Part shown: piece after piece, positions 25,767 to 28,156 of the stretch
Position numbering within the stretch: the stretch's first letter is position 1
Layout: each line of letters starts with the position of its first letter
NCBI GenBank assembly: GCA_003503945.1
Contig: DOCD01000154.1
Span: 1 to 28,821 of the forward strand
DNA: 28,821 bases
Reading direction: 5' to 3'
Source: Clostridiales bacterium
Lineage (GTDB): Bacteria; Bacillota; Clostridia; Christensenellales; Borkfalkiaceae
The notes under the pieces: model-generated
What the model saw: only the letters and a program-made list of their open reading frames with translations
Told to the model about the DNA's origin: nothing
Databases searched by the model: none
Position numbers and translations under genes: made by a program

Positions 25767-27182
25767 ATGCGCAAACTTACAAAATTATTATTTTCATTGA
25801 ATTTTCTATACGTTTTACTTATTGCGGCGGAAACTGCCGCAATAATTTTTTTATGCCTGTATCTGCCCGCCTTTATGTCGGTTGCGGCGGCTTTTGCGGG
25901 CGTGTGGCTTGTCACGGTTATCGCCGCCGTCTGCGCCGTGGTGAGCGGGGGCTCCGCCGAAACCAACTGCGCGGCAATCCTGTTTATCGTGGCGCTGCCC
26001 GTCGCGGGCGCGGTTATCTACTTTATTACGCGTGCGGGGAAACGAAAATGCTGCCGCCTTAAAGTTACGGGCGGCGTTTCGGTAAACGGCGAGGAACGCG
26101 CGGCGCAACTGTACTGCGGCACGGGCGGCGCGGACTACGACAAAGCGGTATACTTTAAAAGCGGCGCGGACTACTTTTCCACCCTGTTTTCGGAAATCGA
26201 ACGGGCGCAAAAATACGTCTGCCTCGAATACTTTATCGTCTGCCGCGGCAAAATTTTCGCAAGGCTCGTATCCGCGCTGCGCACGGCGAAAAGCCGCGGC
26301 GCGGAAATCAAAATAATAATCGACGGGATAGGCTCGGCGTTCAAGGCGGGTCGGCGGGAATACAAAACGCTGAAAACGCTGGGCGAGGTGAAAATTTTCA
26401 ACAGGCTCTCCCCGCTTGTCTGCACGGGCATAAACAACCGCGACCACAGAAAAATAGCCGTCGTCGACGGCAGGGTCGCGTTTACGGGCGGCTTCAACAT
26501 TGCGGACGAATACGCGAATATCACTAGCCCTCTGGGGTATTGGAAGGATACGGGGGTCGCGCTGTACGGCTGCGCGGCGAAGGTGTTCGGCGGAATGTTT
26601 TTCGCAATGTGGAACGACGGGTACGAAATGCGCGCGGAGTCGGGCGGAAAATACCGCTGCATCCCCTTTTGCGACAGCCCGCCCTCCCGCACGGCTTACT
26701 GCGAAAACGCATACCTTACCGCAATCAGCGCCGCAAAACGGCGGGTGCATATATTCACGCCCTACTTCTGCACGGGCGAAAAGCTGACCGCCGCGCTCGT
26801 GAGCGCGGCGGCACGAGGCGTCGACGTGCGGATTATTATCCCGCATATCCCCGACAAGAAATACGCATTCGAGCTTTCCAAAGCCTGCGCCGCGGAGCTT
26901 TCCTTGCGCGGGGTGAAATTCTACGAATATACCCCCGGATTTATGCACGCGAAAAGCATGGTCTGCGACGACAAGCTGTATATAGGCAGCTACAATATGG
27001 ATATCCGCTCTATGCGTTTGAATTACGAATGCGGAGTCGTGCTGGAAGGCAAGGTCTGCGAACAGGCGGAGCGCGACTTCTGGGAATGCGTGCGGCTGTC
27101 CGCGCCGTTTACGGAGGGAAAGCTTTCACCGCCGCGGCGGGCGTATCGTTTTATAATAAAGCTGCTTGCACCGCTTATGTAA
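25767..27182 (+). CDS. cls: Cardiolipin synthase (phospholipase D family)
   Basis: N-terminal TM helices and two HKD motifs (RDHRKIAVVDG...GGFNI; FMHAKSMVCDD...GSYN). Confidence 0.92.
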   Translation: MRKLTKLLFSLNFLYVLLIAAETAAIIFLCLYLPAFMSVAAAFAGVWLVTVIAAVCAVVSGGSAETNCAAILFIVALPVAGAVIYFITRAGKRKCCRLKVTGGVSVNGEERAAQLYCGTGGADYDKAVYFKSGADYFSTLFSEIERAQKYVCLEYFIVCRGKIFARLVSALRTAKSRGAEIKIIIDGIGSAFKAGRREYKTLKTLGEVKIFNRLSPLVCTGINNRDHRKIAVVDGRVAFTGGFNIADEYANITSPLGYWKDTGVALYGCAAKVFGGMFFAMWNDGYEMRAESGGKYRCIPFCDSPPSRTAYCENAYLTAISAAKRRVHIFTPYFCTGEKLTAALVSAAARGVDVRIIIPHIPDKKYAFELSKACAAELSLRGVKFYEYTPGFMHAKSMVCDDKLYIGSYNMDIRSMRLNYECGVVLEGKVCEQAERDFWECVRLSAPFTEGKLSPPRRAYRFIIKLLAPLM

Positions 27183-27194
27183 GCCGTTTCGTTC

Positions 27195-27223
27195 TTGACA
27201 AAATGTAATTTAAAAAGTATAAT
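27195..27223 (+). promoter_or_regulatory. Perfect sigma-A promoter
   Basis: TTGACA 27195-27200, 17 bp, TATAAT 27218-27223. Confidence 0.85.
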
Positions 27224-27243
27224 GTAATTATAATAATATATAT

Positions 27244-27523
27244 AGGCAAGCTGTCATAAATTAGAACAACCTTAGCGGCGTCTTTTCGTTGCTTTCCGTA
27301 CGCGGCTCCGTTCGGAGTACGTCTTTGTACGCCTCAGTCGCCGCGCGCACAAATCAATCGAAAATGCGCACGCTAAGGCGCGAAGCGGTTTTAACGGAGC
27401 AAATTTGCCGATTAGACGAGGAAATGACCGCAGATAATCCATAGACGGATTATCAAGGGCTTTGACGAAGTATAAGCCCAAATTTGCCCGTTAAAACTTG
27501 CTCGAACTTATAACAGCTTGCCT
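27244..27523 (+). other. About 280-nt structured element with paired ends (MITE-like or structured leader/ncRNA)
   Basis: Ends 27244-27269 and 27498-27523 pair at 22/26. Internal stems: 27270-27277/27371-27378, 27388-27407/27479-27497 and 27433-27454. Confidence 0.7.
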
Positions 27524-27556
27524 GCGTTACTCATTACGCAACAATAAGGTGAATAT

Positions 27557-28156
27557 ATGAAATTTGTGATTGCATCCGACGTACACGGTTCGGCAAAGTA
27601 CTGCAAGCTTTTAATCGACGCGTTCAGGCGCGAAAATGCGGATAAGCTTCTGCTACTCGGCGATATCCTCTACCACGGGCCGAGAAATCCGCTGCCCGAC
27701 GGATATTCGCCCAAAGAGGTTGCGGAAATGCTTTCGGAAATAAAGGAAAAAATTATTGCGGTAAGCGGGAACTGCGACGCGGAAATCGACGCAATGATTT
27801 TACCCTTCCCGCTTTCGGACTACGCGGCGGTGTTTGCCGACGGAATTAACTTTTATATGTCGCACGGGCACCGCGCCGTGCCGCCCCTCTGCGGCGGCGA
27901 CGTGTACCTTACGGGGCACACCCACGTGCCGCTGAAAGAAGCGGGGCAGTATATCCACCTCAACCCCGGCTCGGTTTCGCTGCCCAAAGAAAACAGCAAA
28001 CGCGGCTATATACTTTACGACAACCGCAGGTTTGTTTTCAAAACGCTCGAGGGCGAACAGTACGACAGCCTCGAAGTGACGAGCGGAATTCCGCAGAGCG
28101 CGCCCCGCGCCCCCGCCGTCCGCCGCAAGGTAGTGCGCAGAAGAAGATTGATTTAA
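27557..28156 (+). CDS. yfcE: YfcE-family metallophosphoesterase
   Basis: SDVHGS, LGDILYHGPRN, GNCD, SHGH, TGHTH, NPGSVSLPK. Confidence 0.92.
   Translation: MKFVIASDVHGSAKYCKLLIDAFRRENADKLLLLGDILYHGPRNPLPDGYSPKEVAEMLSEIKEKIIAVSGNCDAEIDAMILPFPLSDYAAVFADGINFYMSHGHRAVPPLCGGDVYLTGHTHVPLKEAGQYIHLNPGSVSLPKENSKRGYILYDNRRFVFKTLEGEQYDSLEVTSGIPQSAPRAPAVRRKVVRRRRLI

Follow-up and report, generated by a model that had tools for sequence, protein, structure and literature searches.

A probable mobile DNA element with a conserved core and a sequence-free but paired terminal stem, inserted upstream of yfcE in a member of the Clostridia

Small palindromic repeats and the element between cls and yfcE

The Correia elements of Neisseria (CREE or NEMIS), ERIC (or IRU), RUP and the bcr1 repeats of the Bacillus cereus group are small non-coding repeats, 100-300 bp in length, that have inverted repeats at their termini. 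They lie between genes, near gene ends and in either orientation, they are co-transcribed with their neighbours and they form long hairpins. Correia elements have TA at both ends, and their long stems are known as substrates for RNase III. REPINs (REP-BIME; RAYT, Y1 HUH) are about 100 nt in length. They form a long hairpin with an arm sequence that varies between species while pairing is kept, and the target is not duplicated; a trans-acting enzyme recognizes the folded form. Integron attC sites and the ends of IS200/IS605 are read as folded single-stranded DNA, so that structure counts for more than sequence. The attC sites are single hairpins of 57-141 nt attached to gene cassettes, and IS200/IS605 has separate left-end and right-end hairpins and a strand bias.

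Here we describe a 282-bp element that works most like the transcribed palindromic MITEs (i.e. Correia, ERIC, RUP and bcr1) and the REPINs. It resembles the former in architecture, as a small, non-coding, dispersed palindromic repeat. It shares with REPINs the long hairpin and the variable but paired arms, and may share the lack of target duplication, and we propose below that an enzyme likewise acts on it in trans and in its folded form. However, the element fails the defining tests of both groups. No parent IS was found, no duplication was shown, there is no link to RAYT, and the pattern of conservation is reversed. In Correia, ERIC, RUP and bcr1 the terminal repeats are conserved and each family is confined to a genus or family of bacteria, whereas here the ends are free and a three-part core of ~230 nt is found class-wide. 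By contrast with the element, REPINs lack a large conserved core; a GTAG or CGTC tag is conserved in them, and a RAYT gene is found in the same genomes. The attC sites and IS200/IS605 ends are the nearest precedent for a paired stem that is free in sequence; in the element, unlike IS200/IS605, a single stem joins both ends and there is no orientation bias.

The window is the whole stretch of DNA that was analysed, of 28,821 nt. We consider it probable that positions 27243-27524 are a copy, with slight decay, of a mobile DNA element that is non-coding and non-autonomous and belongs to an undescribed family spread through the Clostridia. The features of the locus, all on the + strand, are as follows.

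25767-27182, + strand: cardiolipin-synthase-like PLD gene (cls), the upstream neighbour of the element
27195-27223, + strand: sigma-A-type consensus promoter; host sequence, outside and upstream of the element
27243-27524, + strand: whole repeat element, 282 bp, TAGGCAAG...CTTGCCTG, an insertion relative to the closest relative
27243-27269, + strand: left terminal arm, forming the 5′ side of the outer stem, slightly decayed in the window copy
27270-27378, + strand: arm 1, a long hairpin with imperfect pairing that is closed by CCTTAGCG/CGCTAAGG and has GTAC-loop-GTAC at its tip
27379-27387, + strand: mini-hairpin CGC-GAA-GCG, a 3-bp stem with a variable triloop, between the arms
27388-27497, + strand: arm 2, closed by GTTTTAACGG/CCGTTAAAAC and containing the GATAATCC/GGATTATC hairpin
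27498-27524, + strand: right terminal arm, forming the 3′ side of the outer stem; TCGAAC is close to the inner end and CCTG is terminal
27545-28156, + strand: yfcE-like phosphoesterase gene including its RBS (AAGGTG, 27545-27550; ATG at 27557), a neighbour outside the element

A first-pass annotation made from the sequence had described a multi-stem element between a perfect sigma-A promoter and yfcE, and its account of the anatomy was borne out. In a promoter scan TTGACA (27195-27200) and TATAAT (27218-27223), separated by a 17-nt spacer, match the consensus at 12 of 12 positions. The ends pair over 26 nt, 27244-27269 with 27498-27523, with 85% complementarity (22/26). Within them CCTTAGCG (27270-27277) pairs with CGCTAAGG (27371-27378) to close arm 1, and 27388-27407 pairs with 27479-27497 to close arm 2. 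Each of the enclosed arms is roughly 110 nt in length. The two inner hairpins are also present, GATAATCC/GGATTATC at 27433-27454 and GGGCTT/AAGCCC in the minimum-free-energy fold. The most conserved unpaired motifs, GATTAGACGAGGAAA and GACGAAGTATAAGC, are both located in arm 2. The element ends 33 nt ahead of the ATG at 27557, and the reading frame that begins there (27557-28156) encodes a YfcE-like phosphoesterase that matches Metallophos_2 (E = 8.5e-19).

The sequence that flanks the element on the promoter side is not common to other copies. Its TATAAT box is also found in the closest relative, G009, at a site that is empty of the element, whereas the -35 box lies within a 60-nt segment absent from G009. 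This extra segment (27157-27216) is placed between the end of cls and the common TATAAT box. It extends the C-terminus of Cls, holds a weak terminator-like hairpin (27164-27184) and provides TTGACA as the -35 box, and with it the perfect match of the promoter to the consensus. G009 has no -35 box, and its TATAAT box lies across the stop codon of cls. We also note a minus-strand promoter-like site at 27230-27257 (ATGACA, 16 nt, TATTAT; 10/12) that faces outward; the -35 box falls within the left arm and the -10 box within the AT-rich sequence beside the element. This is probably fortuitous.

Dispersed copies, empty sites and the extent of the family

The ends of the element were placed at 27243/27244 and 27523/27524 by alignment of genomic copies and from the loose ends of contigs in other samples. 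Contigs of other copies, from public rodent-gut runs, diverge from the window exactly at 27243 and after 27523. The right arm terminates in CCTG in the window copy, and in CCTA in the consensus of the other copies.

The genome to which the window belongs (G000) is a 1.56-Mb assembly of 194 contigs that is 65% complete. Dispersed copies occur within it, of which at least three are full and two diverged, together with four internal-deletion derivatives. The full copies other than that in the window are C194:7612-7892, at the end of its contig, and C130:1856-2136, with 92% identity to the window copy. Those of the diverged subfamily, on C121 and C17, have ~73% identity. The derivatives are mini-elements of 25-43 bp on C25, C59, C76 and C81, in which only the two terminal arms are left, with short microhomology at the junction. 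There are also partial copies at contig ends. The outer arms of the window copy have four mismatches, compared with one in the C130 copy; the window copy is probably older and slightly decayed, and may no longer be mobile. Contigs C194, C17 and C44 each start or stop inside a copy, and the repeat is one cause of the fragmentation of this metagenome assembly.

Sites that lack the element are found at this locus. In G009, where yfcE is 93% identical, cls and yfcE are ~40 nt apart and the element is absent. Its spacer runs from GTATAATGTAATTAGAATATTATATA directly into CGTATT, where the window has ATATATA, then the element (TAGGCAAG...CTTGCCTG), then CGTTAC. The two genes are close together in most of the 57 genus genomes that hold the locus, the distance between them being ~40-160 nt in most genus members. 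An independent mouse-gut contig (X25) carries an empty allele in which 27242 is joined to 27545 with CGTATTATTTGT in between. At an element locus of another genome, G251, seven relatives have no element at the orthologous position. The public runs that hold the window sequence are from rat and mouse gut, and in another sample (a public rodent-gut run) the read depth over the element exceeds that of the flanking sequence 3-8 times. Further clean empty sites were sought by comparing the flanks of the C130, C121, C76, C59, C25 and C81 copies with G009, and the G251 flanks with relatives; all of these flanks were either not syntenic or too diverged for a target duplication to be read from them.

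The first-pass annotation had offered two readings, a MITE-like non-autonomous element or a structured leader or ncRNA. The first is supported by the dispersal of copies within this genome, by the empty sites and by the hundreds of copies in the Clostridia (below). The details of a MITE were sustained in part: the element is small, non-coding and dispersed with terminal repeats, while neither a target duplication nor a parent IS was found. The second reading did not survive in the form of a structure specific to yfcE. A cis-regulatory leader (i.e. a riboswitch or attenuator) dedicated to this gene was suggested by a highly structured sequence with a perfect promoter on one side and the start codon of yfcE on the other, and yet nearly all members of the genus have adjacent cls and yfcE genes with no element. 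The closest relative is one of these, and other copies lie beside unrelated genes in either orientation. Moreover the fold contains no terminator or anti-terminator, does not sequester the RBS, is equally stable on both strands among the copies and has no match in Rfam. The empty sites and dispersed copies refute such a dedicated leader, to which we give virtually no credence. The element is a passenger at yfcE, and not a sensor dedicated to it.

The extent of the family was determined using a covariance model of the core (R1), comprising 229 positions and 64 pairs. Matches were distributed as follows.

Genus: 52 of 151 genomes
Order: 14 of 151 genomes (11 of 95 genera, in at least 8 families)
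Class Clostridia: 23 of 151 genomes (16 of 108 genera)

In all, the core-model search indicates hundreds of copies across the Clostridia. Several genomes hold at least 14 each, and the total per genome may be much higher. No match was found in plasmids or phages by BLAST, nor in viral contigs by a motif scan, and partial matches to the core model in other families led nowhere. Comparison with Rfam 15 gave no match in the window at the gathering threshold, and nothing relevant at E ≤ 10 across 27100-27650, so the structure is not that of a known family there. We found no description of the element in the literature. The family is an undescribed one, spread across the class Clostridia.

The element has practical consequences for annotation. 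A strongly covarying fold of ~280 nt that separates a gene from a perfect promoter resembles a riboswitch, and yet the fold here belongs to a mobile repeat. With the covariance model of the core hundreds of such copies can be flagged in gut Clostridia, in which they are also a cause of breaks in metagenome assemblies.

A variant from which arm 1 has been removed exactly was observed in a genus genome (L090, G122:C9) and in a contig from a second public run (X24), with 27277 joined to 27384 in the window numbering. Its presence in both indicates a deletion form that has been propagated.

A conserved core closed by a free but paired stem

Throughout the family a terminal stem of 24-28 bp closes a conserved core of ~230 nt that comprises two long hairpin arms and the mini-hairpin. 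We aligned 93 distinct copies. Three or four types of Watson-Crick pair occur at nearly every stem position of the core, and all 64 of the model pairs change on both sides in the stored core alignment. Of the cells in paired positions 91% can pair, compared with 65% in shuffles and 36-43% when the partners are slid. The covariation extends to helices 1-8 of the model (arm 1) and helices 10-14 (arm 2), and helix 9 (the mini-hairpin) is 97% paired, with alternation between UA and CG. Unpaired motifs of the core are also conserved, e.g. CAAGGCAAAG, CTTTAACG and AGTATAAGC. On this evidence the structure of the core is under selection. There is no conserved open reading frame; no frame is open across the copies and the differences in length are not multiples of three. 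In its size of 282 bp and the lack of a conserved frame the element is as expected for a MITE.

The terminal stem is very different. It is 24-28 bp in length, with 88% of positions Watson-Crick paired over 78 distinct copies, in agreement with the terminal inverted repeats of a MITE, and yet its sequence is unrelated between subfamilies (TAGGCAAGCTG..., TAACCAAAGC..., TACCCGTTG..., TAGCCACAC... and TATACCTGATG...). The left arm is hypervariable across the family, usually with TA at its start and GAAC(C) at its end, and the only semi-conserved sequences in the stem are the terminal TA(A/G)(C/G)C and the inner GAACC/GGTTCG. Conservation is therefore inverted relative to an ordinary MITE, the ends being the least conserved part and the core the most.

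Copies fall into discrete within-genome subfamilies that share both stem and core. G251 has approximately ten copies with TAACCAATTCAATATAATCCGAACC. Stem and core thus move together, and the stem is not assembled afresh at each locus. Stem and core together are one insertion unit here, which moves as a unit and forms subfamilies within genomes. It spawns mini-elements by internal deletion, and inserts into intergenic spacers in either orientation.

In the recent G251 family the same substitution is found in both arms, converting a T-A pair to G-C and a C-G pair to G-C. In two copies a G-C pair has become A-T, and both the G·T and the A·C intermediates are present in others. One position of the stem is divided between three copies with C-G and three with T-A. 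Matched changes in the arms would be of no use to a transposase that reads each end as a duplex; they are what would result where pairing of the arms is required, or where one arm is corrected from the other. The compensated changes could thus reflect selection in master copies or arm-to-arm repair. In one copy (L034) the outermost T-A pair is replaced by C-G. This suggests that the terminal TA is a paired part of the stem and not a duplicated TA target.

Several subfamilies (L167, L139, L146, L151 and L178) have a right arm that is like the 3′ half of a tRNA (i.e. T-arm plus acceptor), e.g. CGCGGGTTCGACTCCCGTCACCTTA, and GGTTCG(A/G) is semi-conserved at the inner end of the right arm across the family. 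We rejected the possibility that these are tRNA genes, as ARAGORN finds none overlapping the copies and the T-arm hairpin is not general.

Target sites and the search for a mobilizing enzyme

The absence of a target-site duplication, noted in the first-pass annotation for the window copy, was found likewise here; the copies inspected have no direct repeat beyond the TA...TA ends. The sole readable empty site lies in a (TA)n run. The filled and empty sites differ by the core plus 4 nt, and not plus 2 nt, so that the comparison fits no duplication better by 2 nt, while a 2-bp TA duplication is possible.

An ordinary cut-and-paste MITE derived from a DDE IS (e.g. IS630/Tc1-mariner, with TA duplication), in which the transposase binds the duplex ends and the core is left over from the IS, merits consideration here. 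It would account for the TA...TA ends of most copies, the terminal repeats of 24-28 bp, the discrete subfamilies and the internal-deletion derivatives, which are typical of DNA transposons. Nevertheless we think this origin unlikely. The core-plus-4-nt difference between filled and empty sites is not that expected, the conservation is inverted as discussed above, and matched substitutions in both arms would not restore the binding of a sequence-specific transposase.

Candidate enzymes and parent elements were sought directly. The IS630-type DDE_3 domain (PF13358) occurs in no more than 4 of the 151 genus genomes, and the element is in none of these. DDE_Tnp_1 (IS4/5) was found in 14 of the 151, with no enrichment among carriers. 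Y1_Tnp (PF01797) is present in 50 of the 151 and overlaps with the 52 carriers in 16 genomes, compared with 17 expected by chance, in contrast to the association of REPINs with RAYT; several high-copy genomes have no Y1_Tnp. TnpB (PF07282) is absent from five high-copy genomes, a further difference from IS200/IS605. A partner enzyme was thus not found among the IS630, IS4/5, Y1 and TnpB types tested. A parent IS with the same ends was sought in the draft G000, where an end-sequence search yielded only small elements and a loose end-motif scan was too noisy to use. In G251, which is 100% complete and has ~10 fresh copies, the end sequence occurs only in the copies of the element and in one solo match. 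In favour of an ordinary MITE, most of the genomes are draft metagenome assemblies, and these often lose IS copies, so that the absence of a parent IS is weak evidence.

Matches to rve were rejected as a partner. They are diverged genes of the IS3 family that are missing from two high-copy genomes, and their flanks have no inverted repeats resembling the arms of the element.

The family reverses the pattern of a MITE, with a class-wide core and ends that are free in sequence but obligatorily paired, and no transposase that was tested tracks with it.

A probable DNA fold, the proposed movement of the element and the predicted yfcE transcript

The + strand of the window copy folds with -121.7 kcal/mol (z = -6.6), and the - strand with -135.9 kcal/mol (z = -9.9); for neither strand was any of 100 shuffles as stable. 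The greater stability of the - strand was a first hint that the structure is a DNA palindrome, and not that of one RNA strand. On folding the full element from 74 copies, each of the two strands was the more stable in 37; the mean difference was -0.2 kcal/mol (Wilcoxon p = 0.86). In the outer stems there are 92 G·T and 72 A·C mismatches, and these numbers are nearly equal. In the core there are 202 G·U against 128 A·C, in an alignment fitted to the + strand, and this small excess leaves room for some selection on one strand.

The neighbours of the copies are unrelated and there is no preferred orientation. Among 88 copies classified by their flanking ORFs, 21 were co-oriented (+,+), 25 anti-oriented (-,-), 15 lay between divergent and 12 between convergent genes. 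In Firmicutes the lack of orientation bias is a rough proxy for the lack of a leading- or lagging-strand bias. A preference for landing just ahead of an RBS was considered and dropped, as this was seen in only 8 of 79 copies compared with 3 controls.

These data bear on whether the element might be a mobile gene for a structured ncRNA, i.e. an RNA of ~280 nt from one strand that is either useful to the host or reverse-transcribed, with the terminal stem as its closing helix. The very strong covariation in every helix, the conserved unpaired motifs, the conservation of the core across a bacterial class, the G·U excess in the core and the position of the window copy 3′ of a consensus promoter would all be consistent with such an RNA. 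Yet a functional RNA of one strand should give strand asymmetry, and of four tests none was in its favour. The near equality of G·T and A·C in the outer stem, the tie between strands on folding and the lack of orientation bias relative to neighbouring genes favour a palindrome at the level of DNA over a functional RNA. In addition, a scan of the window copy found no + strand promoter-like site within the element and no stem plus T-run at its end, and mini-elements consisting of the arms persist and spread without a core. No RNA run was found to contain the locus. We regard a mobile ncRNA gene as quite improbable, and return to the element as mobile DNA.

A mechanism of movement can be proposed from patterns in the sequences. 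Mobility probably depends on the pairing of the ends with each other together with the shape of the core, and not on a transposase that reads a fixed end sequence. The paired form would most likely be DNA, as a hairpin or cruciform, or as one strand of either polarity folded on itself. A putative enzyme acting in trans would make its cuts at the TA...TA ends, close to the foot of the stem, with no obvious target duplication left behind. A more specific proposal, which we advance only tentatively and with some doubt, is that the element represents a class of mobile DNA recognized by shape. The trans-acting enzyme would read the conserved two-arm core and cut ~25 bp away, a distance that is fixed, at the foot of the stem; the sequence of the stem would be irrelevant, and the arms would be kept complementary by the mechanism itself. 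This might occur by folding of the transposing strand, or by repair of one arm templated by the other. The shape-reading enzyme would possibly be encoded by the host or by another mobile element. If the requirement for pairing is true, then the family would indicate a structure-reading mechanism of transposition or repair that has not been described in Firmicutes, and the hundreds of compensated stems would provide a natural data set for working it out.

At the locus itself, the element is probably located in the 5′ UTR of the yfcE transcript. The promoter lies upstream of the element and the scan revealed no further + strand promoter-like site between the element and yfcE, so that the transcript should carry it. 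The claim of the first-pass annotation that the element is obligately transcribed is therefore a reasonable inference only. A very stable structure has been added to the predicted leader, and may alter the expression of yfcE. In the minimum-free-energy fold the RBS (AAGGTG, 27545-27550) is left unpaired, which means that translation could proceed. The long stem could affect the processing or stability of the mRNA, and by analogy with Correia elements a stem of ~26 bp is a plausible substrate for RNase III.

Several individual copies have unusual structures. L249 (G251:C8:18559-19083) is chimeric, with a left arm TAACCAATTCAATATAATTCGAAC and a right arm ...GGGTTCAATTCTTGTCAGGTTA that come from different subfamilies, which suggests recombination between elements. 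In G365 three identical copies (L307:5940-6870, L308 and L309) lie within a composite repeat of ~930 bp, which also holds at least one other repeat unit that is found elsewhere in inverted form. The composite was considered as an autonomous element and rejected, as it is non-coding. Lastly, L283:2146-2196 (G104) is a mini-palindrome of arms alone, GAGCTGTAATCCGAAC and GTTCGTATTACAGCTC separated by 7 nt. It directly adjoins opposite-strand sequence that resembles the 3′ end of a tRNA gene, and lies ~150 nt after a transposase gene of the IS3 family.
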